Shown here: positions 29,006 through 50,972 of the stretch, piece by piece | Layout of the letters: the number at the start of each line of letters is the position of its first letter | Position numbering within the stretch: position 1 is the stretch's first letter | NCBI GenBank assembly: GCA_030583685.1 | Contig: CP129470.1 | Span: 635,412 to 699,411 of the forward strand | Length of the DNA stretch: 64,000 bases | From: Candidatus Dojkabacteria bacterium | GTDB taxonomy: Bacteria; Patescibacteriota; Dojkabacteria; GCA-002793355 | Direction: 5' to 3' | Translations under genes and position numbers: made by a program | Notes under the pieces: model-generated | Told to the model about the DNA's origin: nothing | Databases searched by the model: none | The model's input: the letters and a program-made list of their open reading frames with translations, nothing else

Positions 29006-29029
29006 ACATGTCATAGTGTGATGACATCA
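29006..29029. promoter_or_regulatory. cluster of TGTCAT/ATGACA palindromes (GACATGTC; TGTCAT-n6-ATGACA) 20-40 nt upstream of the XRE regulator gene, a candidate operator
   Basis: Sequence acatgtcatagtgtgatgacatca read directly. Typical of autoregulated HTH-XRE operators. Confidence 0.4.
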
Positions 29030-29048
29030 TATTTCATACATTCGACGT

Positions 29049-33237: not shown

Positions 33238-33865
33238 TACAAAAAAATTCATAGTCCTGCTTGGCGGTGACGGAGCAGGGAAAACGTCGGTAATCAAAAA
33301 TTTGGGGCTGGATTGTTGTAGTGTCATTTCGTATTCTGAAACTCCGGTTTCCAATCGAATAGAATCTATGTGTGAAATTGAAAAGATTGTTCGCAAGGAC
33401 CTCCTCCCTCAATTTTCTACCATGTCTCCGCAGTTTAGAGTTGCAGTCTACAACTTATTTGTTGCCTATATGGCCGAGTCAATTTCTCATGAAATATGTC
33501 GAAACAATGTCATTTGCGACTCATATTATTACAAGTTCATGGCAAAGGAAATTTTATCAGGTGTCGATGCGAACCAGTTGCAGATTTGGAAAACACTCCA
33601 AAGGCCAGATGCCGTTGTGTATTTAGATGCTGATCCACGTCTTGCTTACAGAAGGATAAAAAAAACTCGTGCTATTCAAAGTAATGAAAAATTCGTAGAC
33701 GATCGAGAGGAAGAAGGATTTATTCGGTTACAAAAACGATTAAAAGAACAAATGATTGAGATTATTCGAAAATCCAATATCCCCCTCAGTCTCGTGGACG
33801 CGAACAAACCATTGAAGGATGTTTGTCTGCAAGTTCAAAATAATATTATTGAAATCTTAAAATGA
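33227..33865 (+). CDS. thymidylate-kinase-family (Tmk-like) nucleoside monophosphate kinase paralog
   Basis: Walker A KFIVLLGGDGAGKTS aligns with Tmk KYIVIEGLEGAGKTT. ICDSYYYKFMA aligns with the DRH/Y..S.AYQ region. The lid PDAVVYLDADPRLAYRRIKK aligns with PDLTLYLDV.PEV.LKR. The DR(Y/H) motif is replaced by DSY. Confidence 0.6.
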   Translation: MNSNTKKFIVLLGGDGAGKTSVIKNLGLDCCSVISYSETPVSNRIESMCEIEKIVRKDLLPQFSTMSPQFRVAVYNLFVAYMAESISHEICRNNVICDSYYYKFMAKEILSGVDANQLQIWKTLQRPDAVVYLDADPRLAYRRIKKTRAIQSNEKFVDDREEEGFIRLQKRLKEQMIEIIRKSNIPLSLVDANKPLKDVCLQVQNNIIEILK

Positions 33866-34638
33866 ATTTGGGGTTAAAAGACAAAAAAATTGTTGTTACC
33901 GGTGGTGCGAGTGGGATAGGAAAGGCAATCGCACTCGATCTCTGTAGAGAAGGAGCTTTCCCTATAATTATTGATCGTGATGAGTCTGCACTTTTACGTC
34001 TTAGGAAGGAGATAGGTGATGCAAGGATAAAAACATTTGTCTGTGATTTGTCTGATTGTTTAGAAACAAAACAGGTAATTTCACAGATTAATAAAATATT
34101 CGGAGATGAAATCTATGGCTTGGTTAACAATGCTGGAGTAAACGACGGGGTTAGTCTTTTGGACGGAATTTCCGCATTTCAGGCTTCATTACAAAGAAAC
34201 TTGATTCACTATTTTCAAATGACCAGTGGGTTGATGGAAAGTATCAAAAAAAATCAAGGGTCAATACTCAATATCTCTTCAAAAGTTGCTGAAACGGGGC
34301 AAGGAGGAACATCAGGATATGCTGCTGCAAAAGGAGCAATTAATGCGTTAACAAGAGAGTGGGCACTTGAGCTTGCGCAGTATGGAGTAGATGTAAATTG
34401 TATCGTTCCCGCTGAAGTGATAACACCTCAATATGAAAAGTGGATAAAAAACGAATCTGATTCTCGAAAAGTTCGGAACATACTTCGTAAGATTAACCTG
34501 GGAAAGCGTCTTACCAGACCAGAAGAAGTAGCAGATTTCGCAATATTCTTGCTGTCACAAAGAAACACACACACAACGGGGCAGTTAGTCTTTGTGGATG
34601 GTGGATATACGCACTTAGATGATTCAACGTCAGTATGA
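33862..34638 (+). CDS. short-chain dehydrogenase/reductase (SDR)
   Basis: TGGASGIGKAIALDL (TGxxxGIG), NNAG, and the catalytic YAAAKGA (YxxxK). 258 aa. Confidence 0.85.
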   Translation: MNLGLKDKKIVVTGGASGIGKAIALDLCREGAFPIIIDRDESALLRLRKEIGDARIKTFVCDLSDCLETKQVISQINKIFGDEIYGLVNNAGVNDGVSLLDGISAFQASLQRNLIHYFQMTSGLMESIKKNQGSILNISSKVAETGQGGTSGYAAAKGAINALTREWALELAQYGVDVNCIVPAEVITPQYEKWIKNESDSRKVRNILRKINLGKRLTRPEEVADFAIFLLSQRNTHTTGQLVFVDGGYTHLDDSTSV

Positions 34639-35297
34639 AAGAGAAGTTTATGACAAAAATCAGAAAGTTTGCAAAAGAGTGCATGGGAAAAGTTCCAGCG
34701 CACGGTTATGACCATGCTTTCCGAGTCGGAATAATGGCCCGGAATATTGCACGAAAGGAAAGCTTAAAAAAATTATACCTGTATGAAATCGCAGGTCTTC
34801 TGCATGATATTGGGTTGGATTTTCCCGACAGGTCAAAACACGGGGAGATTGGAGCAAAGAAAGCTTACAGCTTCTTGAGACAAGAGACGGATTTGTCTAT
34901 CACAGAATTATCTGAAATTACGTATGCGATTTCTTATCACAACCGGAAGCTATCAGCACCAAAGCATTCTCTTATACTTGATGTTCTTGCAGACGCTGAT
35001 ACGTTAGATTTATTGGGGGCAATAGGGATTTGGAGAGGAATCCAATCTCGTGCAGATGCTAATCTCCCTTCTCCGAGACAAGTAGCAGCTGCGATGAATC
35101 GATTTGAAGAGTATAACAAGAGCCGGAAAGATAAACGCGAAAACAACACGCATAGTATTGCTGAACAAATTAATTTTCAGATTCAATCTGCCAAGATAAT
35201 TACAACAAGTACGGGTAAAAAGATGGCAGAACCTTTACTTGCAACAATGAGGCATTTCCGATACATGATTGTCGAAGAGTTAACCCAATCTAAGTAG
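34635..35297 (+). CDS. HD-domain metal-dependent phosphohydrolase
   Basis: H...HD motif: HGYDHAFRV ... LLHDIGL. 220 aa. Confidence 0.65.
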   Translation: MKEKFMTKIRKFAKECMGKVPAHGYDHAFRVGIMARNIARKESLKKLYLYEIAGLLHDIGLDFPDRSKHGEIGAKKAYSFLRQETDLSITELSEITYAISYHNRKLSAPKHSLILDVLADADTLDLLGAIGIWRGIQSRADANLPSPRQVAAAMNRFEEYNKSRKDKRENNTHSIAEQINFQIQSAKIITTSTGKKMAEPLLATMRHFRYMIVEELTQSK

Positions 35298-36739: not shown

Positions 36740-37581
36740 ATATCATTGATACACATATTCATCTTTGGAAGTATATTCCTGAGCAGTATTCATGGATTAC
36801 GGAGGAGATGAAAGTACTTAAGCAGGATTTCCTGTATTCACAGTATAAACAGCAAGTAAAGAGTTCTGGAGGAGTCCTTGTTCAAGCCAGACAGTCAGGG
36901 GAGGAGACTGAATTTCTGTGTGGTATCGCAAATCAGTATAATGATGTTATCGCAGTTGTTGGTTGGATGGATTACCAAGAGGATGAGCCTTCACAAATGA
37001 TAGCAAGAATTAAAGAACAACCACAATATGCAAAACTGACTGGTTTTCGACATTTAGTTCAAGATGAGCCTGATTTGAGATTTATGCTTCAGGAAAAGTT
37101 TAGATCATACCTTGAGCTACTTGCTAAGGAGAACTATACCTATGATGTTCTTATTCGCTCCCATCAAATGAAACAGTTTCTTGAGTATTTGCATACAACC
37201 GAGACTAATAAACAACCTGTGCTGGTTTTGGATCATATTGCAAAACCTGTTATTGGGGGACCTAAAGAATTATTTAACAAATGGCAACAGGACATACGGG
37301 AAATTGCGAAACACGAGAATGTGAATTGTAAGATATCTGGACTCTTAACAGAAGCGAGTACCGGTTCAACTCCAATTTTCACTCCATATCTTGAGGTAGT
37401 GCTTGAAGCTTTCGGAGTCGACCGACTCGTTTTGGGATCTGATTGGCCAGTGTGTACTTTGAGAGGGTCGGGGACTCAATCACTTTCGGTTTCTGTAGAT
37501 TTCTTGCAAGCCAATCTTGTTCAATCTGATTTAGAAAAAATACTTAATTTAAATGCCATACGGATATATGGAAAAAATTAG
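36736..37581 (+). CDS. TIM-barrel metal-dependent amidohydrolase (Amidohydro_2 / COG3618-like)
   Basis: N-terminal metal-binding motif IDTHIHLW. 281 aa. A paralogous fragment lies at 35302. Confidence 0.6.
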   Translation: MNIIDTHIHLWKYIPEQYSWITEEMKVLKQDFLYSQYKQQVKSSGGVLVQARQSGEETEFLCGIANQYNDVIAVVGWMDYQEDEPSQMIARIKEQPQYAKLTGFRHLVQDEPDLRFMLQEKFRSYLELLAKENYTYDVLIRSHQMKQFLEYLHTTETNKQPVLVLDHIAKPVIGGPKELFNKWQQDIREIAKHENVNCKISGLLTEASTGSTPIFTPYLEVVLEAFGVDRLVLGSDWPVCTLRGSGTQSLSVSVDFLQANLVQSDLEKILNLNAIRIYGKN

Positions 37582-39304
37582 TAACGTAATCGCTGCGCCA
37601 CAATTATCCGACTATTTTGTTTCTCATGCTGAAATTGAATATCTTTATGATGGAGAGGGAGAAAATTCTGGTGCTATAGATCCTAATGCTCTATCTGCGG
37701 GAGGTGGACCATTTATTTTTCGAATGATTTTAAGATTTGTCGATACAAGTCGGGCCGTTGCATCAGAAATTCCTAATAGATTGCAACAAACATTAAAGCA
37801 AGTTCTGCCTTCGATGGGAAATCAAGCGATTCAAGAGTTGAACTCGCAAATTGTTAGTCATTTGGAGCGGATGGGTATAAATTCTCTAGAGTCATTCGAA
37901 TATCTTGAGAAGAAAATTATCGAAAAGATGCCTGATATTCTTGAACTTTACAACAATACAGCACTGATTCAACGTTTGAACGGATTGTTTGAAACGGAAT
38001 ATGGAATCGTTTGGTTCGCACCAAAATTGTGGAGGGAATATAAACTGCGCCAGATAGAGCTTTTCTTAAAAGCAGTGAGACAAGGGAAGCAAATAGGTCC
38101 TTTTGCAGCTGATTTTAACAAAAATATGAAAGCGTATCTTGATACTCTTTGCCAAACGCTTGAACCAATTCCACCCGAGTATGTTACATTTGATGTTGAA
38201 TGGGAAACTGACTTTAGTTACTACGTTGCCTATAAAAAGAGTCAGGAAGGTGTTATTATACGAGTATTGATGGATTTGCACTCCAATAGTGGCTTGTTTG
38301 CTGAGATCCCATTACAAGCAATCCTTGCTCCATACGGAAAGAAACGATACAACGATGTTTATGGACTACTACTTGAATCTGATGCAGGGGTACAGGAAAG
38401 GAACGGTTTTAGATATACGAATCATAAATGTAAGATCATAATTGAGGAAGGTGGGCGAAAAGAACTTTGTTTCTCTTCTGGCATCATGATTAAGCTTGCA
38501 GATTCTGTTACAACAACACGCGAGGCTATCCAAGGAGATTTTAAGCAATATGCATATCTTTGGGAATGGTTCGATAAATCAAAGTTTGATTACTCACGGG
38601 ATAGTCATCGAAAGATGTATCTCTCAAGTTTTTTAAATGCAAAATCTGGATTTTTCGAAATTTTCAAGTATGCTCAGGAAAAATATGGTATTTCGTTGAA
38701 GTATCCAAAAACGAATGTGTTTGGGAAGAAAAGTATTCCAAATATGGACGGTTACTCTGAGTTTGTCAATATTAAAGATGGTGGCTGGTGTTCTACTGGA
38801 GGAAAACATGTACACCTTGTTAAAAAGGAGCACCTTAAGAGAGATGTTGAGAAATTACATTATCCTGGTTACCTTGTGCAGATACATATACCTTCACTTC
38901 TTTTTATTCATGAGGATGGAACAAAATATCATGGACACGCACGAAAAGTTTCGATTGTCAATCGAAGTGGTGACATTGTTCATCTCGGTTTCTTCTTGCG
39001 TATGGTTGAAGAGAGTAAAGGAAACAGTTCAGGTTACCGAGCTTATCGTATGGTATTTAATGATGAAGGGAATTTCATTGTTTCGTATAGAACTGGGGGA
39101 GAACCACAAACATACTTGTCGCTTGAGGAAACAAAACTCAAGCCATTAGTAAGCGATTTGAAAGCATTTCTAATTGAGGTAAAACAGGAATGGCATAAAC
39201 AAATTTATGCATTAAATAAATTTGTTGCAGAAGAAGATGTGCCAGCTTTTGTCGCACAACTCGTAAAAGATGGTAAACTGTCAAAGAGATATTTAATAAG
39301 TTAA
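37553..39304 (+). CDS. large hypothetical protein (583 aa) with no recognisable motif
   Basis: Long uninterrupted ORF co-oriented within the enzyme cluster. Contains the Cys/His-containing stretch GGWCSTGGKHVHLV...HYPGY...HGH, but no assignable family. Confidence 0.55.
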   Translation: MPYGYMEKISNVIAAPQLSDYFVSHAEIEYLYDGEGENSGAIDPNALSAGGGPFIFRMILRFVDTSRAVASEIPNRLQQTLKQVLPSMGNQAIQELNSQIVSHLERMGINSLESFEYLEKKIIEKMPDILELYNNTALIQRLNGLFETEYGIVWFAPKLWREYKLRQIELFLKAVRQGKQIGPFAADFNKNMKAYLDTLCQTLEPIPPEYVTFDVEWETDFSYYVAYKKSQEGVIIRVLMDLHSNSGLFAEIPLQAILAPYGKKRYNDVYGLLLESDAGVQERNGFRYTNHKCKIIIEEGGRKELCFSSGIMIKLADSVTTTREAIQGDFKQYAYLWEWFDKSKFDYSRDSHRKMYLSSFLNAKSGFFEIFKYAQEKYGISLKYPKTNVFGKKSIPNMDGYSEFVNIKDGGWCSTGGKHVHLVKKEHLKRDVEKLHYPGYLVQIHIPSLLFIHEDGTKYHGHARKVSIVNRSGDIVHLGFFLRMVEESKGNSSGYRAYRMVFNDEGNFIVSYRTGGEPQTYLSLEETKLKPLVSDLKAFLIEVKQEWHKQIYALNKFVAEEDVPAFVAQLVKDGKLSKRYLIS

Positions 39305-39316
39305 TAAAACTTTCTG

Positions 39317-40651
39317 ATGAAACTTTATGAAAATTACCAAAAATCGTTACAGGAGCTGGTTGCATTACAATCCATTTCTACTGACCCAACTTTTGCGCAG
39401 GGCATTGAGGACACCGTTCAGTGGCTCGTTTCGTACTTTGAAAAAAATGGCTTCTCTGTAGAGCGAGTAGATGGATATGGCAACCCGATTGTTGTCGCAC
39501 GGTATACCGTTGCGCCTGAAAAAGAAACCTATTTTGTGTACGGACACTACGATGTACAGCCTGCTTCTCAGGAAGACGGTTGGGAGAGTGATCCTTTCTC
39601 TTTGACGGAGCGTGATGGAAAGTTATACGGACGCGGAGTTGTTGATAATAAAGGGCAATTTATGGTGCATTTAACCAGTATTGTTGCTTTGATTGAAGAG
39701 GGAAAACTTGAAAAGAATGTTGTGTTTGTTGTTGAAGGAGATGAGGAAACCGGTGGCGAAGGCATCACGAAACTTTTTGAGGCACGACCCGAGTTATTCA
39801 AGGCAGATCAATATATTATTTCAGACGGAGAAATGCCGTACAAACCTGTAATCACTGCTTCTTTCCGAGGGACCTTTAATATCACCGCAAAAATTACGAC
39901 TGCTGCAAATAACTTGCACTCTGGTCTGTATGGCGGCGCAGCACCAAGTGCCACAGTTGTTGCGTCAAAACTGGTTGCGGGCATGTATGACGATGAGAAC
40001 AGACTGGCGATTACTGGATTCTATAATAACGATTTGGTCGCAGATGAAGTTGAAATGCAACTTTGTCGTGACATGGATGCAGTGAAGACAGCAACTCTTG
40101 AGCAAACTGGCGTGAAAAAATGGTTTACTGGCCCAAACAACTCATTCTGTGAAGTCGTTGGCTTTACCACTATGGTGGTTCCTTCTGGAATTTCAAGTGG
40201 CTATACCGGCAGTGGTTACTCAAACATTGTGCCTGCCTCTGCGCTGATCAAGATGAATGTCAGAATCGCAGCAAATCAGACGGTTGAACAAGTGAAAACG
40301 TTGCTTGAGCACTACTTTGCAAAAAATACTCCAGAATACGCAACAACGGAGCTGATTGAAATGCAGAGCAATAATGAACCAATCAAGGTGAATATTAACT
40401 CAGATATGCACAAAAGAACTATTCAATTGCTCGAGGAAGTCTATGGAGACAAGGTATTGATTGACTATTGTGGTGCAACTCTTCCGGTGGTAATTGATAT
40501 CAAACGCGTTTTTGGTGCTGATCCCGTACTGATTTCTTTGGCGAATGATGATTGTAATATGCATGGAGTCAATGAGAATTACGATATCGAGCTCTTGAAG
40601 AAAGGATTGGAGTTTTCTTACCGATTGTTTGGCGGGAATAGTAATGGGTGA
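39317..40651 (+). CDS. M20-family metallopeptidase (dipeptidase/ArgE/DapE-like)
   Basis: Metal-binding motifs GHYDVQPA, VDNKGQ and EGDEETGG. 444 aa. Confidence 0.75.
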   Translation: MKLYENYQKSLQELVALQSISTDPTFAQGIEDTVQWLVSYFEKNGFSVERVDGYGNPIVVARYTVAPEKETYFVYGHYDVQPASQEDGWESDPFSLTERDGKLYGRGVVDNKGQFMVHLTSIVALIEEGKLEKNVVFVVEGDEETGGEGITKLFEARPELFKADQYIISDGEMPYKPVITASFRGTFNITAKITTAANNLHSGLYGGAAPSATVVASKLVAGMYDDENRLAITGFYNNDLVADEVEMQLCRDMDAVKTATLEQTGVKKWFTGPNNSFCEVVGFTTMVVPSGISSGYTGSGYSNIVPASALIKMNVRIAANQTVEQVKTLLEHYFAKNTPEYATTELIEMQSNNEPIKVNINSDMHKRTIQLLEEVYGDKVLIDYCGATLPVVIDIKRVFGADPVLISLANDDCNMHGVNENYDIELLKKGLEFSYRLFGGNSNG

Positions 40652-41111
40652 GTATTTAGAAGGTAGTTTCTTCTCTCGAGTTCATGAGATTGAAAGGTAT
40701 GAAGGAAGTCAGCTTGTGCTATGCTCGATGTCAGAACAAAACAGGTTTACCTTAGCACTTACACAGAAAACAGGTAAAAAACACCTTATTGCCGCCAAGG
40801 TCGTAATTGAGGTCTCCGCTCCGAGTTCTTTTCCTATACCACAAGACCATCTAAGAAGCTTACAAATGTATAATAGAATAGCTAGCTATGCTTTTAAATC
40901 GTATAAAATAGAGAAAGGGTATGGTAGCTATTTGTGGAAAAAAGCAGATGAGTGGGTGAAAATGCAACGCCTTCCTGTATTTATTGAAGATACTAATCCT
41001 ATGTCATCAGCCGGATGGACAAGTGCAATGATAATAAAGTTGCATCCTAACGCTCAATATCTTGGAAAGAATGAAAGAGGAAACCACACATGGATATACA
41101 ATAAGAAATAA
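40629..41111 (+). CDS. hypothetical protein
   Basis: 160-aa ORF overlapping the M20 gene's 3' end. No motif. Confidence 0.35.
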   Translation: MAGIVMGEYLEGSFFSRVHEIERYEGSQLVLCSMSEQNRFTLALTQKTGKKHLIAAKVVIEVSAPSSFPIPQDHLRSLQMYNRIASYAFKSYKIEKGYGSYLWKKADEWVKMQRLPVFIEDTNPMSSAGWTSAMIIKLHPNAQYLGKNERGNHTWIYNKK

Positions 41112-41127
41112 AATTTGAACTCGTCTT

Positions 41128-42567
41128 TCAATATTCCCCCTTCTCACTCAAATACTGCTGTAAATAGTACCCTGTTTTTGTTAAATAGCCACGATTGTAG
41201 AGTTCTTGCGCGCGGGTAACACCGATATAGCGAATATGCCAGGGTTCGTACGTGTAGCCGGTGTATGGTTCTGAGCCGTTGGGATAGGAAATGATTAATC
41301 CGAATTTGTGTGCGTTATTGTGTAAGTAGGTGTAAACCGGTGTGTTTTTTGAGTCATAAAAATTGCATGGATAATTGCAGCCCATGATATCGACTGTTGT
41401 GCCTAATTGATGTTCAGAATGACCAGGTTTTGCGGAATACGTATTCGCTTTTACGACAGCCTGTTCGTAGGTGAGTCCCTTTTTTCTCTCATTATTGACG
41501 TACGAATTGAAGAGCGATTGTTGTGTTGTATACGACCGATATGAAGACGAAACTCGCATAACAGAAATCCCATTCGCTTTTGCATCAGCAAAAAGTTTTT
41601 GCAACGCGGTTCTCGTGTCAGGAGTAACATAGCCACCGCCGGTAACACCGGTTGCAACAACATAGGGAATATAGGATGAAGGCAGTGCGAAGTTCTTGCT
41701 GACGGGGGCAAGCCAGCAATTCTTACAACTAAGCACGCCACTGGTTGGTTTCGGCTTGGCGCAAAGTGATTGCAATGCTGTGAGTACGTTTCCTAATCGA
41801 TATTGCTGTTGATCTTTCAGGTAGTATAGGGGAATAGTCGCTTTTGTTGTGCAGTTTTTCTGCTGCAGGGTTACGGTCCCAATCTGAATCAAAAATTCTG
41901 ATTCTTCGCCGAGTGCAAGCGAGACTGATGCAGTGTGTTCCAAACGATACGCAAGGTCAGAGATTTTGAATATCGAGGCAAGTGTTCCAAAGTCTGTCGC
42001 AAGCAGGAAAGATTCTGCAGTATTCTGTTGTTTTTTCGACAGCGCAGTTTTCAGAGAATTCCAGTTGTCAGTTAGTTGTTTGGTCAGTTCTGCGTGTACT
42101 TTTTCACCAATAAATCGTTTTTCGTGCAACGGAGCGGTGAGTATCCGAGTTGAGTGATCATAGTACGCGGTTATTTTACCGTTTACCTGAACTTCGCGCA
42201 CTTCGACTTCGGCAAAACCATCGTGCCCCGCGGGAAAGGTATATTCCCACTCGGCAGGAAAGGTCGGATCAGTGCTTGTTTCAACGGTAAAGGGGAGGGC
42301 AACTTCTTTTGTTTCGACAATCGTCTCGGTAATCGTTAAACCGAGACTCTTTTTTTGCAATGCAGTTTGGTTTGGCGCTTCACCGTACAACAGAGTCAGC
42401 GCGTGTTGTCCGTTCTCAACAGAGGCAAATGAACCGGTGCGTAACTGATGCCACGCAATACCTTTATGGAGCGGCGAGGTCGGCCACTCCCACAAGAACA
42501 TGCCCAACGAACCAATGGTTGCGATACCAATCAGGATAGGCAGGAGTACTTCTCGCAACTTCATCAT
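41128..42567 (-). CDS. membrane-anchored VanY / M15-family D-alanyl-D-alanine carboxypeptidase
   Basis: N-terminal TM. C-terminal M15 signature SAKPGHSEHQLGTTVD ... EPWHIRYIG. Confidence 0.75.
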   Translation of the reverse strand: MMKLREVLLPILIGIATIGSLGMFLWEWPTSPLHKGIAWHQLRTGSFASVENGQHALTLLYGEAPNQTALQKKSLGLTITETIVETKEVALPFTVETSTDPTFPAEWEYTFPAGHDGFAEVEVREVQVNGKITAYYDHSTRILTAPLHEKRFIGEKVHAELTKQLTDNWNSLKTALSKKQQNTAESFLLATDFGTLASIFKISDLAYRLEHTASVSLALGEESEFLIQIGTVTLQQKNCTTKATIPLYYLKDQQQYRLGNVLTALQSLCAKPKPTSGVLSCKNCWLAPVSKNFALPSSYIPYVVATGVTGGGYVTPDTRTALQKLFADAKANGISVMRVSSSYRSYTTQQSLFNSYVNNERKKGLTYEQAVVKANTYSAKPGHSEHQLGTTVDIMGCNYPCNFYDSKNTPVYTYLHNNAHKFGLIISYPNGSEPYTGYTYEPWHIRYIGVTRAQELYNRGYLTKTGYYLQQYLSEKGEY

Positions 42568-42598: not shown

Positions 42599-43627
42599 TT
42601 AATCGTTAAGTGTATCGGAAATTCTCGCCAGGTAATCTTCTAATGCTCGATGGTTCTGATGATCTTGTATGTATTGTTGCAATTCAAGCTGCGTGTGTAT
42701 CAATCTAAATCCTCGCGGAATGGAATAAACACTGGAATTTGTCGGAAAATAAAGAAAATGAAAAGGTAGTTTTCTGTCAATAAAATGTGACTTTTCTGCA
42801 GGTCGAGGATTCTCAAGGAAGAACGTTTGTAAACGCTGTAGCGTTGAAATGAGGAGTGATCGAATGATTTCGTCATGTTCAAAAACCATTTGTCGTTTTG
42901 TCCACGCAACAGGACTTGTTTCTGCTTGTGCCTTTGCTCTTTCGACGCGAGTCTGTTTATCAGAATCCATAACAACAAAAAAACGAGGTGACCATGTCTT
43001 CAAATTGACAATAATCAGCATAAAGAGTGGTTCGGGTAAAGATATTTGCCCTGATTCTTTGTCAATTTCATAGGTTTTGGTAAATGCGCAGAGACCAACA
43101 AGAGTTTGTAGCAATCCGCCAATTGCAATAAAGTCGGCGCTGAGTGGTTTTGGCATTGTCTCCAGTTTTTTTTGCATGGTAAACGCTCCTCGAATACTTG
43201 CGTAGATATATTCTTCCCAGAGTACCGCAGCTTTTTCTTCGTCAGAAGAGTAAGGAGAGATTCGAGCCCTGTATTGTTTGTTACCAAAAAGTTCTGATGT
43301 TGGCCGATGTTCCATATATCGAAGTGATTCTTTAAGATATTCTGCGGTCGTAGTTTTTGCCGCAGCGCCAGGTCCAAGAATCATGACTCCGTTTCCAGGA
43401 TGAATTGTGGTTGTATCCTGCTTGATTGCGGTAACTTCTTGTTGGAGTAACTCAAGTCCAAAGGTAATTCTTCCTCGCAGTGTTCGTGGTGTTCCCATTT
43501 CCTGAGGAGCAAGTAGCTCTATTGCCACGTTTGCGGCAACTTCTTCTGGTTGAAAAACGAGCGGTCCAATTTTCTGACGGATTTCTGGAGCGGTTGCAGG
43601 AGGACCTTTTGCGGTTACTTGGTACAT
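42599..43627 (-). CDS. P-loop NTPase-fold protein (kinase / zeta-toxin-like Walker A) of unknown function
   Basis: Walker A MILGPGAAAKTTTAEYL. 342 aa. Immediately follows the gene at 43629-44636 (1-nt gap). Confidence 0.5.
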   Translation of the reverse strand: MYQVTAKGPPATAPEIRQKIGPLVFQPEEVAANVAIELLAPQEMGTPRTLRGRITFGLELLQQEVTAIKQDTTTIHPGNGVMILGPGAAAKTTTAEYLKESLRYMEHRPTSELFGNKQYRARISPYSSDEEKAAVLWEEYIYASIRGAFTMQKKLETMPKPLSADFIAIGGLLQTLVGLCAFTKTYEIDKESGQISLPEPLFMLIIVNLKTWSPRFFVVMDSDKQTRVERAKAQAETSPVAWTKRQMVFEHDEIIRSLLISTLQRLQTFFLENPRPAEKSHFIDRKLPFHFLYFPTNSSVYSIPRGFRLIHTQLELQQYIQDHQNHRALEDYLARISDTLND

Positions 43628-43628
43628 A

Positions 43629-44636
43629 CTACGTTGCTGAAATCAATTTGTATCCTTTTCCTGAGATTGTTCTGAGCATATACTTCTCTTGGATCGCCTT
43701 GCCAAAACGAGACATCGTTTTGTAGACTGCCCACAGGGAATAGGGCTTTTGCTGGTTCAAATGTGCGTGAATTGCTTCTTTGGAAAGGAATTTGCCAGGT
43801 TGTTGCAGAAAAAGCTCGAGAAGCTCTTGATACAGCGGTGAGAGCTGGTCCAATGTCGGTTGAGCAAGAGATTTGACAAACGCTTTGAGAAGAGGAATGG
43901 TAATAACTCCGTTTTCCGTTGTTAATCCAATCCTTTCGGTTGTCATGCGAGAAAGTGTGCGATACTCAAGCTCAAGCTGTAATAGTTCTGCGCGAATGGT
44001 CGGTTCATGAAGGAGTTTTGGAATAGTGAGAGGATGCTTTTGTTGCGCAAGCAGGAAAAGTCGCTTCGTTAGGCCGATATGTCCGTTTGTTAAGGAAAGG
44101 ATGGTTTTTCTTGCTCCTGGCGGTAATTTTTTTCCGTACAGCTGTTCTCGTACGTCGAGCAAGTGTTTCGAATTTTCTTTGGACAATGGTTTGCGAGTGA
44201 GAATCACTTCAACAGGGGTAGAGGTGTGGGAGAATACTTTTTCAGGAGTATCAAAGTATGATGCCTCAAGAATAATGAGCGAGAGAAAAGTATTCGATTT
44301 GTTCCGCATATACCGGGTAAATGCGCTTGTAAAGGACTTTTCTTTACGGAAATACCAGGGAACAAGAAGCAGTTTTTGACGCGTGCTTTCTTTCTTTTGG
44401 ACAAGATCAAGCGTTTGCGCAGTAAAGGAATCGTCGTGGTCGTAATATACGTCATACTCGCCTGAATGCTGAAAAATTGAGTATAAATAGTCGAGAAAAC
44501 GTCGGTCTCCCATCTTATAGGCAGAACAAAACGCGACACATTGTTTCCGTTGTAGTGCCTCTTGAACGAGTGTTACCTCCTCCGAAAAGTAGGGAAGTCC
44601 TTGAAGGTAGAGGGTTTGATAGGTTTGTGTGTCCAA
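43629..44636 (-). CDS. protein with a C-terminal OmpR/PhoB-type winged-helix DNA-binding domain and a non-canonical N-terminal domain
   Basis: C-terminus SLWAVYKTMSRFGKAIQEKYMLRTISGKGYKLI matches the OmpR wHTH (TVDVHI.RLRKKL...I.TVRG.GYRL). The N-terminal 230 aa lack receiver D/D/K residues and a Walker A. Confidence 0.5.
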   Translation of the reverse strand: MDTQTYQTLYLQGLPYFSEEVTLVQEALQRKQCVAFCSAYKMGDRRFLDYLYSIFQHSGEYDVYYDHDDSFTAQTLDLVQKKESTRQKLLLVPWYFRKEKSFTSAFTRYMRNKSNTFLSLIILEASYFDTPEKVFSHTSTPVEVILTRKPLSKENSKHLLDVREQLYGKKLPPGARKTILSLTNGHIGLTKRLFLLAQQKHPLTIPKLLHEPTIRAELLQLELEYRTLSRMTTERIGLTTENGVITIPLLKAFVKSLAQPTLDQLSPLYQELLELFLQQPGKFLSKEAIHAHLNQQKPYSLWAVYKTMSRFGKAIQEKYMLRTISGKGYKLISAT

Positions 44637-44723
44637 AGTTGTCCAAAAGTGTCAAGTTATGACGGTGTTACCGTGTTAATTATACCATACTTGCGGAATG
44701 TTGAATAACTTAAAAACAGGGCT

Positions 44724-45155
44724 ATGACACAACCACTTGCTATGAAACAGGTTCAAGAACAATTACTCCGTTATCAATCAGATTTGCAACATATTCCGGT
44801 ATCGGATCGCGATACCGTTGATCAGCAATTTTTCGCAATAGGCAAAAAATTGCTCTCCCTCTTCCCTCAGTTTACCTCCTCAGACCTTCCAACGCTCACG
44901 CAGTTGCTGGCCAGTTGGTATACACTCGTGTTGCAGCGCCTTCATACCGAAGCAGTTTCAGGAAATCAAGAGCTAGCCTATGCGTATGTGTTGCACTTGC
45001 TTGAGCAACCACCACTGACGGTGCAAGAAATGAAAGAACAAGTACCCTTGGCAATTAACGGAATTATCGCGTCATACCGCACAAAAGACTGGCACCGCCT
45101 TCTTTCTGGATTAGGAAGGGTGAGAGGGGGAATAGGTGAGGGTGGTGATGAATAA
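44724..45155 (+). CDS. hypothetical protein
   Basis: 143-aa ORF divergent from the wHTH/P-loop operon. The intergenic region carries a GTCCAAAG direct repeat and an AT-rich -10-like box. Confidence 0.4.
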   Translation: MTQPLAMKQVQEQLLRYQSDLQHIPVSDRDTVDQQFFAIGKKLLSLFPQFTSSDLPTLTQLLASWYTLVLQRLHTEAVSGNQELAYAYVLHLLEQPPLTVQEMKEQVPLAINGIIASYRTKDWHRLLSGLGRVRGGIGEGGDE

Positions 45156-45283: not shown

Positions 45284-47299
45284 ATGTTGATTATGGATGT
45301 TGCAGCTTTTGGAAATATTTCCAAAAAAAAAATAAAAATAAGTCAACGTAGGTACCTTGGGAGTAAGTCTAAGTTACTAGAATTCATTGAAGATATTCTT
45401 AAGAAAGAAAGTGTTGAATACAAGGTTTTTGCGGACATATTTGGTGGCTCTGGCGTCGTCGCTCATCACTTCTACGGGAGGGCAGATATTATTGTAAATG
45501 ACATTCTCAAGTCTAACTACCTTGCATACGTTGCATACTTTGGAAAAGGTCGAGTTCGCCAATTTTATATTGATAAAAAGATTGAAGAGTATAATGCTCT
45601 AGATTCTAAGAATATAACGGAAAATTATTTTTCAATAAATTTTGCTAATACCTATTTTGATCGTGAGAACTCCCTAAAAGCTGGTGCTATTCGAGATGAC
45701 ATTGAATTACAGTATACAAGCGGGTTTATTAATAATAGGGAACGAGCCTATTTAATTACGTCGCTGATATATGCACTTGATAGAATTGCTAACACGGTTG
45801 GTCATTATGACGCCTATAGACAAGTAACTATACCGAAACGCCCCTTGATTCTAAATCATTTAGAACTCAAAGTATGTAAGTCAAAAAGCTGGATTTACAA
45901 CATGGATGCGAACAATCTTGTAAAACTGATCAAACCAGATGTCATATATATTGACCCCCCATATAATTCTAGGCAATATTCGGACTCTTATCATCTACTG
46001 GAAAATATAGCTGAATGGAAGAAAGAGCCAGTATATGGAGTTGCAAGAAAAATTAACCGCTCTCACCTCAAAAGTAAATATTGTCTTAAGATTGCCGGGG
46101 AAACTTTTAGCGATTTGATTGATAAGATCGACGCAAAATACATTCTTGTTTCGTACAACGATATGGGAAAGAATGGAGATAACCGGTCTCAATCTCGAAT
46201 CACTGATCATGAAATCATTTCTGCGCTAGAACGATGTGGTGATGTTAAGATTTATGAAAAATCTTATAAACAATTCACTACAGGTCGATCGTCAAAGAAG
46301 GATCTTAGTGAAAGAATCTTTTTTTGCAGAGTCGGCAAAAGTCCACAAAAAAGGAGGTTACAGGTTTTCGTATCTAAAGGTGATGAGAGGAGAGAATTTA
46401 TAAAGTCTCCACTAAATTATACAGGTGGTAAATATAAATTACTTCCACAGATAACAAAATTTTTTCCAGATGAAATTGAAACATTTTATGATGTGTTTTG
46501 CGGTGGGGCGAATGTCGGGATAAATGTAAATTGTAAAAATGTAGTATGTATTGATAAGGATAGTCATGTAATAGATTTGCATCATTTAATTTCAACTGTT
46601 AACTTTGATGAGTTACATCAAAATATTCTTGCAATTATAGATCGATTTGGTTTGAGTCATAGTTTTGTGAATGGTTACGAGGTGTATGGCACTGAAAGTT
46701 CTAAAGGTCTGGGGCAGTACAATAAAGATAAATATTTATTGCTACGAGCAGAATATAATAAGATGGAGCAGTCTAATGAGAAAACACTTCTACTACTTGT
46801 ATTAATTATATATGCATTTAACAATCAAATACGCTTTAATTCAAAAGGTGACTTCAATTTGCCTGTAGGAAAGCGTGATTATAACGGTAGCTTACGCAGA
46901 AATCTTGCTGCATTTAACCGGGCAGCTATGGAAAAAGTAATTAAATTTCAGGTTGCTGATTTTAAGGATATACTCAAAATGCCCCTTATAGAAAAAGATT
47001 TTGTCTATCTGGATCCTCCATATTTACTTGGACTTGCTTCGTATAATGAAAATGGTAGATGGAATGAAAATCATGAGAAAAAACTATATTGGGTTCTCGA
47101 TAAGCTCAATAAACGTGGAATTCGGTTTGCTTTGTCTAACGTTATAGAACATAAGGGTACCTCAAACAAAATTCTTAAAAAATGGATTGAAAGTCGTGGG
47201 TATAGACTGAATGAGTTAGACTTTCACTACAATAACTCTAACTATCAGTCGAAGGCGAAATTTGACAGTTCGCTTGAGGTGCTCATTACAAATTACTAA
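45284..47299 (+). CDS. type IIS restriction-modification methyltransferase: fusion of two Dam-like (D12 class) N6-adenine DNA methyltransferase domains
   Basis: Two complete MTase modules, each with a DPPY motif (YIDPPYNSRQY; YLDPPYLLGLASY), plus N-terminal SAM-binding regions (FADIFGGSG; DVFCGGANVG). 671 aa. Strongly AT-rich. TACAAT overlaps the first ATG, so the real start is probably the ATG at about 45293. Confidence 0.8.
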   Translation: MLIMDVAAFGNISKKKIKISQRRYLGSKSKLLEFIEDILKKESVEYKVFADIFGGSGVVAHHFYGRADIIVNDILKSNYLAYVAYFGKGRVRQFYIDKKIEEYNALDSKNITENYFSINFANTYFDRENSLKAGAIRDDIELQYTSGFINNRERAYLITSLIYALDRIANTVGHYDAYRQVTIPKRPLILNHLELKVCKSKSWIYNMDANNLVKLIKPDVIYIDPPYNSRQYSDSYHLLENIAEWKKEPVYGVARKINRSHLKSKYCLKIAGETFSDLIDKIDAKYILVSYNDMGKNGDNRSQSRITDHEIISALERCGDVKIYEKSYKQFTTGRSSKKDLSERIFFCRVGKSPQKRRLQVFVSKGDERREFIKSPLNYTGGKYKLLPQITKFFPDEIETFYDVFCGGANVGINVNCKNVVCIDKDSHVIDLHHLISTVNFDELHQNILAIIDRFGLSHSFVNGYEVYGTESSKGLGQYNKDKYLLLRAEYNKMEQSNEKTLLLLVLIIYAFNNQIRFNSKGDFNLPVGKRDYNGSLRRNLAAFNRAAMEKVIKFQVADFKDILKMPLIEKDFVYLDPPYLLGLASYNENGRWNENHEKKLYWVLDKLNKRGIRFALSNVIEHKGTSNKILKKWIESRGYRLNELDFHYNNSNYQSKAKFDSSLEVLITNY

Positions 47300-47304
47300 T
47301 TAGT

Positions 47305-47313
47305 TGATATAAT
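47305..47313 (+). promoter_or_regulatory. extended -10 TGATATAAT immediately upstream of the restriction endonuclease gene (ATG at 47322)
   Basis: Read directly. Gives the REase its own promoter at the 3' end of the MTase gene. Confidence 0.5.
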
Positions 47314-47321
47314 TACAAATA

Positions 47322-49115
47322 ATGGCTGAAGTATGGAGTTTTAACACAACCATCCGAAATCCTGAACGTCTAGAGTCGCTACTCAGAATCCTGTCCGACA
47401 TGGAGGGAGTGATCTTCGATGCACAAGGTCAAGAGCTCTTTTTTAGTTTGCAAATAAAGAAACGGTTTTACAAACCTAGTAGGAGTACTTTGGGAGAAGA
47501 ATTAGCGTCCGCAGTTTTTGATTCCGAGCAAAATGAAGAACTTGATGATAGTGTCGTTAGTAGTATTCTGGACCAATATAGAGGAAACGTCGATAGTGCT
47601 GGTCGTGGGCGAACCTCAGTTGCTGTTCTTAATAGATTTGGATTGAGTATTGCCCTTCAATCTCATGGTCCCGTAATTATTACGCCTTTAGGTAAGAAAT
47701 GGCTTAGCGGCGAAATTGATGATGAGGAACTTTTTACGCGTTTTCTGTTAAGATGGCAGTATCCGAACCCGATTGAAAGTGGGTATACCAATTACGATAT
47801 TAAACCTTTTCCAGCTGTGCTGCAGCTTATTAATGAAGTTAACATAAAATGGAAGGCTGCTGGTAATAATCCCGTAGGTATATCAAAAGATGAATATCGA
47901 CTTTTTGCATTATCATTACATCGGCAAAGTGATATTGTAAGTGCAGCAGAACAAATAATCGAACTCAGAAGGTGTGTCAACACTTTAGTTGGAACCGAGC
48001 GTTCAGATTATATAAATAGATTTACACAACAGCGTGTTATTGGGATTTTTGGTGACACAAATGATGAGCCGATTAGGAAACACATTAGTAATCTAAAAGA
48101 TTACACTGACTCATCTCTACGGTACTTTAGAACATCGGGCTTGATTACACTGCGTGGTGCGGGTCGGTATATAGACATTGCTGTTGATAAAAAAGTAGAG
48201 GTAGATAGTATTCTTAACGACGTTTCCTTAGAGTCAATTGGCTTTACTGAAGCTGCAGATTATCTTGCTTATCTCGGTGATTTATCCTATGAATTACCGT
48301 GGCAAAATGAGGAAGATCTACAGAGGATTAGCGAAAATCTTATGTCCGTTCTTGAATCTGAAGTCCAAGAAACTACGATTGAATTTGATTCTTCAACGAT
48401 CCACAACAAGACTCTTCCACAGAAAGTTAGTATACTCAAAGGCAGAATCAATCAGGTACGTATAGAAAAACTTCGATCACTTAAGCATGACTTAGAAGTA
48501 CTCGATGAAGCAATAGAGAAGTTGTCGAGTATTACTAGCCCAAGGTACGAAATCATAACATCCCGTCCATCTCTCGATTTAGAGTGGTATGTTTCAAGAG
48601 CGCTTATGGTTATCAATGATGCCATTAGAATTGACCCAAGTTTCAAGGTGGGGGATGACGGAGTACCAACTGGTTTTAGGGGTAAAATCTCTGATATTGA
48701 GTGTGAATATACGTCATTTGGATTGACGGTGGAGGTGACACTAATTAAGGGCCGAGACCAATGGTACGCAGAAGGACAGCCTGTTATGAGACACCTAAGA
48801 GATTTTGAAGACACTTTGCCTGAAGGCAAGGAAGCGTACTGTGTGTTTATTGCCCCTCATATTCACCGTGATACGTTAAATCAATTCTGGACTAGTAATA
48901 AATACGAATTTGAAGGAAGGCGGCAGAAAATTATACCTATTTCGATTGGTGAGTTTGTAGACTTCTTGCACAAAGCTCGTGAAATGATTCAATCGAGTAC
49001 TCTGGACCATAGTGCACTAAGAGAACTACTTAACAATATAACTTTATCAGTCGATACTTATTCTGACTCAATCGAGTGGCAAAGCAATATACATAATACT
49101 ATCTTAGGTTGGTAG
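47322..49115 (+). CDS. AlwI/PleI/MlyI/N.BstNBI-family type IIS restriction endonuclease
   Basis: 597 aa, the same size class as N.BstNBI/PleI. Motifs recalled from that family: FLLRWQYPNP (compare KWQYPS), SLRYFRTSGLITLRG (compare TRYFRYTGLFVARG), YCVFIAPHIHRDT (compare YCLFIAPEINKNT). Paired with a tandem-Dam MTase, as for GAGTC/GGATC type IIS systems. Confidence 0.7.
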   Translation: MAEVWSFNTTIRNPERLESLLRILSDMEGVIFDAQGQELFFSLQIKKRFYKPSRSTLGEELASAVFDSEQNEELDDSVVSSILDQYRGNVDSAGRGRTSVAVLNRFGLSIALQSHGPVIITPLGKKWLSGEIDDEELFTRFLLRWQYPNPIESGYTNYDIKPFPAVLQLINEVNIKWKAAGNNPVGISKDEYRLFALSLHRQSDIVSAAEQIIELRRCVNTLVGTERSDYINRFTQQRVIGIFGDTNDEPIRKHISNLKDYTDSSLRYFRTSGLITLRGAGRYIDIAVDKKVEVDSILNDVSLESIGFTEAADYLAYLGDLSYELPWQNEEDLQRISENLMSVLESEVQETTIEFDSSTIHNKTLPQKVSILKGRINQVRIEKLRSLKHDLEVLDEAIEKLSSITSPRYEIITSRPSLDLEWYVSRALMVINDAIRIDPSFKVGDDGVPTGFRGKISDIECEYTSFGLTVEVTLIKGRDQWYAEGQPVMRHLRDFEDTLPEGKEAYCVFIAPHIHRDTLNQFWTSNKYEFEGRRQKIIPISIGEFVDFLHKAREMIQSSTLDHSALRELLNNITLSVDTYSDSIEWQSNIHNTILGW

Positions 49116-49142
49116 CTAATGATTGGGGAATGATAGCATTTA

Positions 49143-49814
49143 TTAAGATTTGAATATTCGATTGAAGTAAAATCGTTTGAACAATTGCAAAATATTATGG
49201 TGTTTTTTCGCAATTTTTGAATGAGATCGTTGCATTCGATTTAGAATAAAGCTTAAAGAAGTTTTTGTTTGTTCTTCTCCAAATTTTGTTGCAAATGTTG
49301 ATACACCTTCCTCTTTATCGAACTTGATATCCATGAGATCATCTAATAGCTGGCGTAGTAGAAAGTAGTCGGCAATATAGTTTAAATCCTTAAATGAAAG
49401 TTGACTATTTGCTTTTTTTATCAAATTTGTTAGTGGTCGATGTCTATTAGTAATTGAAAGCAGTGTATCTCTTTTTACATTGTGAATCTCGAAGTAATCA
49501 CTCATTTTGTACAGCTCCCAGATAGAAATGATTTTCTCTGTTTGTATTGGGCTATCAGTGTAGTTAATAAAGATTAGTGTATCTGTAAAAATAGTATCGT
49601 AAATAGCATTTGGTCTTAAATTTTTGGAAATTGTGTTAAGACACCTGAGGTATGACCGGAGGTTAGGGTCGTTATTCGTTATTTCAAATGTTTTATAATA
49701 TTTAGTCAAAAAAACGCAATGATACAACGAGGGAAACTTTTTAGTCGAAAAAAATAAATACAAGAAAAGCGAGATACTGTTTGTAAGTAAAGTTTTTGTA
49801 ATTATGGATTCCAA
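49143..49814 (-). CDS. hypothetical protein in the AT-rich island. Contains a UbiA-like Asp-rich segment, but the protein is not strongly hydrophobic
   Basis: QLLDDLMDIKFDKEEGVSTFATKFG resembles the UbiA second motif (DDDLKIGIKSTAILFG), but there are no 8-9 TM helices and the protein is only 223 aa. Very AT-rich codon usage. Confidence 0.35.
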   Translation of the reverse strand: MESIITKTLLTNSISLFLYLFFSTKKFPSLYHCVFLTKYYKTFEITNNDPNLRSYLRCLNTISKNLRPNAIYDTIFTDTLIFINYTDSPIQTEKIISIWELYKMSDYFEIHNVKRDTLLSITNRHRPLTNLIKKANSQLSFKDLNYIADYFLLRQLLDDLMDIKFDKEEGVSTFATKFGEEQTKTSLSFILNRMQRSHSKIAKKHHNILQLFKRFYFNRIFKS

Positions 49815-50030
49815 GGCAGTTTGACTTTACTCAATAATGGTACGATAAACTCTACAACTTGATTGAATATTTCCATGAAGCTATGGTGAGCCATTTTTAT
49901 TAGAAAGTCAAGACCACATGTTTGTTGCACGACTTACAGTCTCTTTGAAAGTTCAAGCTATAGATACAGACAATCCATGAAAAAGATTGTATGGCTTCGT
50001 GAGCTGAATTATATGAGAGTATAATAATGA

Positions 50031-50972
50031 ATGGTAAAAAGGAGTAATGATACAAAGTCTCGTATGAACGTTGACTTGTTTAGCGATATAAAAATTGTCG
50101 ACGATGGGTGTTATTTAAAATTGCCTAATTTAAATTCAGACAAATATAGGACATATGATCCTGAGTATATCGTTACAGGTATGATAAAAACTAGAAGAAG
50201 AAAGATTAATGAATTATGGAAAGTTTTCAGAGGAACGCAGGATAACGATTTTTTGAATCAGTACAAATACGATAAAAATTTCTCTTCACGGATGTGGGAA
50301 ATGTATATTGGAGTTATATTGCTTAATAATGGTTGTAAGATTAATGCTAAAAATAACTCTCATTTAGATTTCTTTGTAAATGATTCTTTCTACATAGAAT
50401 GTGTATACCCTCAAAATGCAAACTGTCAAGATAAGCCTGACTATGTTAAGCCGTTGCTTAGGAAAAATAATATCACCGAAAGACCTGAAGAGAGTTTCAA
50501 AACAAGAATTACAAGTTCCATTGCAGATAAGTATAGAAAATACCGGGAAAAGTTAGAGAATGGTAGTGTCAATGAAAATGTGCCCTATGTACTTGCAATA
50601 AATACTGCTTTTAGGGATATGCCCGATGGGATTGTCCATTCTTTATTATTTGGGTATGGCAATACCCAAATCTTATACCAGCGTGATAAATCAGATTTTG
50701 GTACAAAAGTGGTTGCCTATGACAAGGAGAGTATATCTTATATCCTCAAAAGTTTCTGTAAAAAGGTTACAATTGGATACTTTGAGAACAATGAATTTGA
50801 CGGAATAAGTGCAGTCATTTGTTGTAATAATCATATTATTAATTCATCAAAAGAACCTGGCGCAGATTGTTATATAATACGGAATCCATATGCAAAAAAT
50901 GTATTGTGTAACCAAATTAATTTCATTTCAGAAATTTACAGAGAAGATAACTTTGATGGTATATTCTGGTAA
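50031..50972 (+). CDS. hypothetical protein (313 aa) in the AT-rich island
   Basis: Long AT-rich ORF with TATAAT about 5 nt upstream of the ATG (leaderless-type). No motif. Its position next to the R-M system suggests a defence or mobile-element cargo role. Confidence 0.5.
   Translation: MVKRSNDTKSRMNVDLFSDIKIVDDGCYLKLPNLNSDKYRTYDPEYIVTGMIKTRRRKINELWKVFRGTQDNDFLNQYKYDKNFSSRMWEMYIGVILLNNGCKINAKNNSHLDFFVNDSFYIECVYPQNANCQDKPDYVKPLLRKNNITERPEESFKTRITSSIADKYRKYREKLENGSVNENVPYVLAINTAFRDMPDGIVHSLLFGYGNTQILYQRDKSDFGTKVVAYDKESISYILKSFCKKVTIGYFENNEFDGISAVICCNNHIINSSKEPGADCYIIRNPYAKNVLCNQINFISEIYREDNFDGIFW

Follow-up and report, generated by a model that had tools for sequence, protein, structure and literature searches.

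The DNA analysed here (the window, 64 kb in full) belongs to a metagenome-assembled genome of Candidatus Dojkabacteria, within the candidate phyla radiation (CPR, Patescibacteria). This report concerns two adjacent genes on its minus strand, encoding a winged-helix protein (protein 1) and a P-loop protein (protein 2), which are followed by a gene for a VanY-family carboxypeptidase and faced by a small divergent gene. Gene regulation in CPR bacteria is almost unexplored; the organisms are largely uncultured and have few canonical regulators. The genes are the following (sizes in amino acids, aa):

43629-44636, minus strand: gene of protein 1 (335 aa, TTG start), a pseudo-ATPase of AAA+/STAND fold with a C-terminal OmpR-type winged helix and a putative transcription factor
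42599-43627, minus strand: gene of protein 2 (342 aa, ATG start), with a poorly conserved N-terminal extension of ~78 aa followed by a P-loop kinase core of predicted nucleoside monophosphate (NMP)/deoxynucleoside-kinase fold
41128-42567, minus strand: gene of a VanY-family D-Ala-D-Ala / LD-carboxypeptidase (479 aa) with an N-terminal membrane anchor and G5, the third gene of the putative operon
44724-45155, plus strand: divergent small gene (143 aa, predicted soluble) with positional homologues in all related loci

An earlier reading of this sequence (the preliminary description) had reported the two open reading frames (ORFs), their sizes, their 1-nt spacing and the VanY gene downstream, all of which were confirmed by the ORF list, the junction sequence and Pfam. 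Proteins 1 and 2 meet at TAG-t-ATG, with a single base between stop and start. The junction sequence holds no Shine-Dalgarno sequence at a useful distance from the start of protein 2, which is compatible with translational coupling of the two. The vanY start follows 31 nt downstream of the protein 2 gene, and a consensus scan predicted no terminator-like site on the minus strand among the three genes. The VanY protein matches Pfam PF02557 at 119 bits and G5 at 24 bits; the NCBIfam VanY-B/G and LdcB models match it below their cut-offs. The divergent small protein has no meaningful match in Pfam.

Related loci were recovered through homologues of protein 1, and eight loci, the window included, were compared for VanY and for the element upstream of protein 1. 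They lie on metagenome contigs (L001, L002 and L010/L011), in Patescibacteria BroJett019 (L005) and in Dojkabacteria WS6 (L007, of the same lineage as L016 and L030); L004 shares its contig with L006, and L008/L009 represent a distant relative. Every locus has the same core, consisting of the divergent small gene, a gap of 73-87 nt, protein 1 and then protein 2, and the genes of proteins 1 and 2 overlap by 1-17 nt or stand 1 nt apart. Homologues of the small gene (121-147 aa in L001, L002, L004, L005, L007, L008 and L010) are collinear and 21-24% identical. That proteins 1 and 2 occur together is more than chance, since every related locus examined has both of them, in the same order and coupled. 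VanY follows the protein 2 gene after 19-31 nt in six of the eight loci (the window, L001, L004, L005, L007 and L010). Conservation of the neighbourhood, proposed earlier as a check, was borne out, in that the layout recurs across about seven lineages and closer relatives keep the block between mutS and an M20 peptidase gene. Identities to the window copies are as follows:

MutS: 73%
M20 peptidase: 75-77%
VanY: 50-55% (32% in L002)
Protein 1: 47-52%
Protein 2: 28-35%

The block shows the pattern expected of a vertically inherited, fast-evolving, lineage-specific module rather than that of a mobile toxin-antitoxin or defence island. PADLOC left the window proteins unmatched, a tblastn search of 50,697 phage records found no relative of protein 1 or protein 2, and the IMG/VR viral contigs contained no relative of protein 1.

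Three features of protein 1 bear on its function:

43632-43895, minus strand: winged helix of OmpR/PhoB type (protein 1 aa 248-335)
43932-44636, minus strand: AAA+-like alpha/beta base and helical lid (protein 1 aa 1-235)
44502-44525, minus strand: degenerate Walker A position SAYKMGDR (protein 1 aa 38-45), with G43-D44-R45 in the G-K-[ST] slots

The OmpR/PhoB winged helix, described earlier as clear, is real by fold and by family profile but weak by sequence, as Trans_reg_C (PF00486) scores 24.6 bits on aa 265-331, under its cut-off of 26.2 bits. Trans_reg_C is nevertheless matched by all eight members of the protein 1 family at E<=1 (best E 2.9e-6), the member P0004 carries a precomputed PF00486 assignment, and the family profile aligns to the solved DNA-binding domains of PhoB-family proteins, ToxR, CadC and RstA. 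An AF2 model built from the 8-sequence alignment (mean pLDDT 84) has the winged-helix topology: helices 267-278, 286-293 and 301-315 and then strands 319-324 and 328-333 form the three-helix core and C-terminal beta-hairpin wing of the OmpR/PhoB class. The most conserved segment of the family, and its longest invariant stretch, is YSLWAVYK (aa 299-306) at the start of the recognition helix.

The N-terminal 230 aa had been described as neither a receiver domain nor an obvious ATPase. The first half of this statement stands, since Response_reg is not matched and the fold resembles AAA+/STAND rather than a CheY-like receiver, the N-terminal domain of two-component response regulators. The second half holds by sequence, as no AAA Pfam model matches any of the eight members even at E<=1, but not by fold. 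In the AF2 model, base strands 33-38, 61-65, 87-92, 117-124 and 142-146 form an alpha/beta nucleotide-binding fold with an adjoining helical lid (175-235), followed by the winged helix (248-333), and structure comparison places the N-terminal module with AAA+/STAND proteins. The same base-lid-winged helix architecture is found in Orc1/Cdc6 and in the archaeal “Walker-type ATPase” family (PAB2304, PDB 2qen; SSO1545, PDB 2fna).

The nucleotide-binding motifs of this module are degenerate. The SAYKMGDR loop sits between strand 33-38 and helix 43-56 and does not conform to the Walker A pattern GxxxxGK[ST]; M42, G43 and D44 are invariant in the eight sequences, with Asp44 filling the slot of the Walker lysine, and the homologue from L008 (37% identical to protein 1) reads KLGDRRF at this position. 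Nor does strand 87-92 (LLLVPW, followed by an invariant P93) conform to the Walker B pattern hhhhD[DE]; the corresponding strand in L008 (LLLPYFEE) likewise has no acid at the strand end. We class protein 1 as a pseudo-ATPase: with the Walker lysine and the Walker B acids gone, it cannot work as a canonical nucleotide switch, and its N-terminal module probably serves as a scaffold for oligomerisation or partner binding.

L002 encodes another protein that ends in a Trans_reg_C domain (418 aa; 7031-8287, minus strand), located in the 4.4-kb stretch inserted between the pair and VanY. Only its winged helix aligns to protein 1 (hhalign probability 31%), and the N-terminal region is unrelated. This suggests that C-terminal OmpR-type domains are reused on varied N-terminal modules in these bacteria.

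In protein 2, two motifs of the kinase core are recognized:

43352-43375, minus strand: Walker A GPGAAAKT (protein 2 aa 85-92), with Ala where Gly usually precedes Lys
42935-42979, minus strand: strand and lid motif FVVMDSDKQTRVERA (protein 2 aa 217-231), in which the strand ends at the invariant D221 and is followed by the invariant R227 and R230

The protein 2 family is tiny: a word-indexed search returned only the protein itself, a profile search returned three proteins, and an exhaustive HMMER profile search of 1.84 billion representatives returned ten. The Walker A motif that had been pointed out as ILGPGAAAKTT is present but departs from GxxxxGK[ST] in that Ala replaces the Gly before Lys. 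All nine relatives that cover the region have Gly at this position (G[GPTQ][AP][AG][AS]GK[TS]; alignment A4), and the Walker A lysine is kept in nine of the ten aligned sequences, the tenth (P0018) being truncated before the region. In this lineage the substitution may make nucleotide binding weaker; alternatively, it may be a variant introduced by the assembly. Invariant residues in the alignment are D221, R227, R230, K244 and R245, and the FVVMDSDKQTRVERA segment, judged by its sequence, fits the “hhhhDxxxExxxxRxxxR” strand-plus-lid signature of nucleotide kinases. The family as a whole retains the lysine of Walker A, the aspartate of Walker B and the arginines of the lid, and it lacks the substrate motifs of thymidylate kinase.

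AAA_18 is matched by seven of the ten members of the protein 2 family (best 8e-11) and AAA_33 by six (best 4e-8); matches to Zeta_toxin, dNK, Cytidylate_kin and Thymidylate_kin are marginal only, and the window protein itself matches no Pfam kinase model. The AF2 model of protein 2 is poor (mean pLDDT 52), as the alignment is too shallow. With this model, Foldseek retrieved adenylate, deoxynucleoside and thymidylate kinases at E 0.03 or worse, and two structure searches agreed on the kinase families; structures of zeta or PezT were absent from both lists. Structure comparison, which had been proposed as a check, gives coherent but weak matches to kinases and retrieves no zeta structure. A match of protein 2 to a housekeeping kinase with conserved substrate residues had been named beforehand as what would refute the preliminary description, and it was found by half: the predicted fold belongs to the nucleotide kinases, but conservation does not extend to the substrate motifs of thymidylate kinase (Tmk). 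With moderate confidence, protein 2 is predicted to be a P-loop phosphotransferase of the NMP/deoxynucleoside-kinase fold. Proteins 1 and 2 are new families, with no Pfam or NCBIfam assignment beyond the winged helix, and are restricted to one lineage.

The region in front of protein 1 contains a promoter-like box and a set of repeats:

44679-44687, minus strand: extended -10 element TGGTATAAT (TGnTATAAT), the putative promoter of the operon
44630-44655, minus strand: three direct repeats in 10-bp phase (TTGACAC 44655-44649, TTGGACA 44646-44640 and TTGGACA 44636-44630), the putative operator

TATAAT occurs upstream of protein 1 in all eight loci and is preceded by TGn in seven of them; the TGGTATAAT box was missed by a generic promoter scan because it has no -35 element. 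Some 22-25 nt past TATAAT, all eight loci carry the conserved element (T/C)TGAC(T/A)-N-T-N-TTGGACA-NNN-TTGGACA, in which the GAC cores of the repeats are exactly 10 bp apart in loci whose proteins are 37-52% identical. The TTG start codon of protein 1 falls within the last repeat in the window, L004 and L005; in L001, L002, L007, L008 and L010, where protein 1 starts with ATG, the last repeat overlaps this codon or directly adjoins it. A fourth in-phase repeat is present in L002 and L007, and the element is kept in the distant locus L008. The 45 nt upstream of protein 1 have a mean identity of 73%, compared to 55% for coding sequence. In the window, a zero-mismatch 17-mer of the element spans 44630-44646.

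The paired site is unique in each locus. TGGACA-N4-TGGACA is found once in the 64-kb window and once per 10-15-kb locus (five loci), always at the start of protein 1, and no further regulon site for the repeat pair was found within the window and the loci. A scan of metagenome contigs with TGACWNTNTTGGACANNNTTGGACA returned 30 loci, and protein 1 is present only in L016 and L030; the other 28 lie in unrelated contexts on contigs of 25-66% GC and were judged to be chance matches or simple tandem repeats. An RNA element in the leader was considered and rejected: RNAalifold on the eight leaders gave -2 kcal/mol and no covarying pair, and Rfam had no match in the window. OmpR-type domains, including those of SARP/AfsR proteins, bind direct repeats spaced by whole helical turns (PMC10936776). 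From the same whole-turn spacing, together with the conservation of the element, we infer that the repeats are an operator for the winged helix of protein 1. They constitute a candidate autoregulatory operator, placed such that its occupancy could repress the operon.

Our preferred reading, to which we assign a probability of about 0.4 for the full chain from operator to VanY, is that of a lineage-specific, vertically inherited and self-regulating operon of Dojkabacteria-type CPR bacteria. The winged helices of protein 1 would bind the three to four TTGGACA repeats as a head-to-tail array, one helical turn apart. Occupancy of the repeats between the extended -10 element and the start codon would block transcription or initiation of the protein 1-protein 2-vanY message, resulting in negative autoregulation, and the divergent small gene, at a distance of 73-87 nt, could be a further target of protein 1. 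The dead AAA+/STAND module of protein 1 would be a scaffold, and protein 2 would supply in trans the nucleotide-dependent input that was lost from the P-loop of protein 1, either through contact with protein 1 or through synthesis or consumption of a ligand of protein 1. In most lineages, the output would be the expression level of the membrane-anchored VanY/G5 peptidoglycan carboxypeptidase. The steps differ in strength. That of a transcription factor and its operator is the strongest; that protein 2 is a small-molecule kinase is moderately secure; and the weakest are the link to VanY and the proposed pairing of the two proteins. Regulation of the adjacent VanY gene, one of the suggestions in the preliminary description, is compatible with VanY lying within 19-31 nt in six of the eight loci and with the only conserved operator-like element preceding protein 1, and it is plausible that protein 1 regulates VanY.

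Several points weigh against this self-regulating operon. The model builds on observed gene structure, folds, motif losses, synteny and a conserved repeat element, whereas DNA binding to the repeats, repression, kinase activity, the partnership of proteins 1 and 2 and the link to VanY are all steps that we infer. The available lineages are few, about seven being independent. VanY is not universal: in L002 it lies ~4.4 kb off and is 32% identical, and the third gene in L008 (7570-8877) and L009 (7210-8682) is not VanY but encodes an unrelated protein of 435-490 aa. The window copy of protein 2 alone has Ala before the Walker lysine, and its nucleotide binding may be poor. The fold assignment of protein 2 relies on coherent but weak matches, given the pLDDT of 52 and Foldseek E-values of at least 0.03. 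Finally, the repeats sit in the transcribed leader, which would allow a role at the RNA level. The product of the third gene in L008/L009 has no significant family match, and its start site is called differently in the two contigs.

The closest functional resemblance is to STAND regulators with an OmpR-type domain, i.e. large SARPs such as AfsR and, more loosely, MalT and GutR. The domain order is reversed compared to AfsR-type proteins, with the winged helix C-terminal in protein 1, and protein 1 has no BTAD, TPR or other sensor arm of the kind found in the AfsR/MalT type. AfsR and MalT need ATP binding, whereas protein 1 has lost the residues of Walker A and Walker B. In contrast to AfsR-type systems, the repeats lie downstream of the -10 element, a repressor-like position, rather than overlapping the -35 region, and a separate kinase is always co-encoded.

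A more specific possibility is a “split STAND switch”, in which the P-loop-dead transcription factor depends on a co-translated protein of NMP-kinase fold as its nucleotide-sensing or energising subunit. We consider this unlikely; if true, the state of nucleotides or of salvage would feed into how strongly a cell-wall peptidase is expressed. The broader model of a self-regulating operon would, if true, mean that a STAND/AAA+ regulator can do without a functional nucleotide site once it is paired with a separate P-loop protein, and that peptidoglycan trimming by VanY/G5 is tied to a nucleotide-linked signal in salvage-dependent organisms. The locus is a compact circuit, with a candidate operator (TTGGACA every 10 bp), a probable binding protein and an obligate partner kinase, and is testable outside the native host. 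Should the model fail, a well-delimited pair of new protein families, confined to one lineage, remains.

One alternative places protein 2 in cell-envelope metabolism, where it would phosphorylate either a wall precursor linked to a nucleotide or a wall antibiotic of the nucleoside type. Its connection to VanY would be metabolic, the two enzymes would share a dedicated regulator, and protein 2 would not be a direct partner of protein 1. Known substrates in this superfamily of P-loop kinases include UDP-GlcNAc (for zeta toxins), chloramphenicol and tunicamycin-type compounds, and a kinase fold with substrate motifs other than those of Tmk is consistent with such an activity. The position of VanY directly after protein 2 in six of eight loci also fits, and the M20 peptidase is a conserved convergent neighbour. 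However, L008/L009 keep the regulator-kinase pair and the operator without VanY, and VanY is displaced in L002. The persistence of the pair in the absence of VanY indicates that the conserved unit is protein 1 with protein 2, not the kinase with VanY. The first two genes are strictly coupled or overlapping in all loci, which suggests a stoichiometric partnership of their products. We regard this envelope-enzyme reading as rather unlikely.

It is less likely still that protein 2 is a housekeeping nucleotide-salvage kinase, i.e. a divergent thymidylate or deoxynucleoside kinase, with protein 1 as its regulator and the adjacency of VanY incidental. CPR bacteria depend on salvage, and thymidylate and deoxynucleoside kinases are the best structural matches of protein 2. 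Its motifs are also collinear with those of Tmk from Escherichia coli, a lead only. The FVVMDSDKQTRVERA segment corresponds to what we take to be “LYLDVTPEVGLKRA” of that Tmk, in a low-probability hhalign alignment that likewise serves as a lead only; the profile of protein 2 aligned to Tmk sequences at probabilities of 14% (E. coli) and 9% (Mycobacterium tuberculosis), again no more than a lead to motif correspondence. Hallmarks of Tmk are an Asp in the P-loop (GxDGxGK) and the substrate motif DR(Y/H/F). Protein 2 has neither: its P-loop reads GxAAxGK (G-x-[AP]-[AG]-x-G-K in the family), and the DR(Y/H) position reads GG in the low-probability alignment to Tmk. Compared with the Tmk/dNK superfamily as a whole, it further has the ~78-aa N-terminal extension and a longer C-terminus, and it fails the Pfam models; Thymidylate_kin (PF02223) is unmatched by the window protein and matched by two of ten relatives (best E 0.0064). 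About ten representatives among 1.84 billion proteins are few for a housekeeping enzyme, and an identity of 28-35% where MutS has 73% is too low, that is, evolution is too fast, for an essential kinase. Protein 1 bears an OmpR winged helix and not the helical collar of clamp-loader subunits. A separate ORF passes the Thymidylate_kin cut-off, which makes it unlikely that protein 2 is the Tmk of the cell:

33227-33865, plus strand: Thymidylate_kin ORF (212 aa; 49.8 bits against a cut-off of 27; P-loop GGDGAGKTS)

The preliminary description had favoured a toxin-antitoxin or abortive-infection module with zeta/epsilon- or AbiE-like components. In its most concrete form, that of PezAT or omega-epsilon-zeta, protein 2 would be a toxic kinase acting, e.g., on UDP-GlcNAc, and protein 1 its neutralising repressor. 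PezAT and omega-epsilon-zeta are known to be autoregulated via promoter-region repeats, and the apparent operator of the present locus would imply the same. As in those systems, a DNA-binding regulator comes first and a tightly coupled P-loop kinase second, and there is a link to peptidoglycan, with a cell-wall gene adjoining here and zeta toxins poisoning peptidoglycan synthesis (PMC3062530). Three of ten protein 2 relatives match Pfam Zeta_toxin weakly (best E 0.002), and two match the PADLOC VakA model, a small P-loop model, at E 3e-6 and 3e-5, matches that look like generic P-loop similarity. The faster evolution of proteins 1 and 2 than of their neighbours is also in line with a toxin-antitoxin pair, and the Gly-to-Ala change in the Walker A motif of the window copy could be read as an attenuated toxin.

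Most of the evidence argues otherwise, and we regard this explanation as very unlikely. The pair is present in every related locus and, in contrast to PezAT, the locus is chromosomal, syntenic and lineage-wide, holding a constant position between the housekeeping genes mutS and that of the M20 peptidase in diverged genomes. The window proteins had no PADLOC match, and neither protein had relatives in phage records, nor protein 1 in viral contigs. In place of a small epsilon/PezA-type antitoxin, the upstream gene encodes a 335-aa, three-domain AAA+-like regulator with a winged helix, not a short labile antitoxin. Within the protein 2 family, AAA_18 and AAA_33 scores far exceed those of Zeta_toxin, and the window protein does not match Zeta_toxin (PF06414) at all; protein 2 is closer to Tmk, deoxynucleoside kinases and adenylate kinases than to zeta. 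In these toxins, the catalytic Asp follows the Lys of Walker A by ~20 residues (Asp67 in zeta, Asp66 in PezT; PMC3062530). No invariant acidic residue occupies the corresponding place in protein 2, and a sequence-level test of the 10-sequence alignment found no invariant or near-invariant acidic column between K91 and D221. The toxin of AbiE is a nucleotidyltransferase-fold protein that defence-system models recognise; the predicted P-loop kinase fold of protein 2 and the lack of PADLOC matches among the window proteins both speak against an AbiE identity.

Some further observations concern the surroundings. Between the divergent small gene and mutS, the window carries an island of lower GC (45284-50972; 0.36 vs ~0.42) that is absent at the same place in other genomes. 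It comprises the following genes:

45284-47299: fused double D12-class N6-adenine methyltransferase (671 aa)
47322-49115: AlwI-family restriction endonuclease, which together with the methyltransferase forms a restriction-modification system (45284-49115)
49143-49814, minus strand, and 50031-50972, plus strand: two unknown genes

Directly after mutS, a gene of 355-359 aa is found in L001, L005 and L007, and one of 244 aa in L004. The Thymidylate_kin ORF lies in a same-strand cluster (31502-35297) with genes for an unknown 360-aa protein, a DUF6182 protein, a short-chain dehydrogenase and an HD-domain protein; instead of being a simple tmk locus, the cluster may serve to modify nucleotides or sugars. 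Encoded at 37553-39304 (plus strand) is a 583-aa protein that matches no family; it is conserved at 40% identity in L007 and L030, where it neighbours an amidohydrolase and the M20 peptidase. A 160-aa ORF (40629-41111, plus strand), with no match anywhere, overlaps the end of the M20 gene. A 666-aa protein at 26810-28810 (plus strand) resembles Baseplate_J weakly (31.9 bits), but PHROGs matches of the neighbouring same-strand genes at 12-29 kb lend no support to a prophage or a tail-like cluster. Two long ORFs on opposite strands overlap almost entirely (29027-29623, minus strand, and 29049-29636, plus strand); the minus-strand ORF is probably spurious, since the plus-strand ORF encodes an XRE-type HTH_3 protein.

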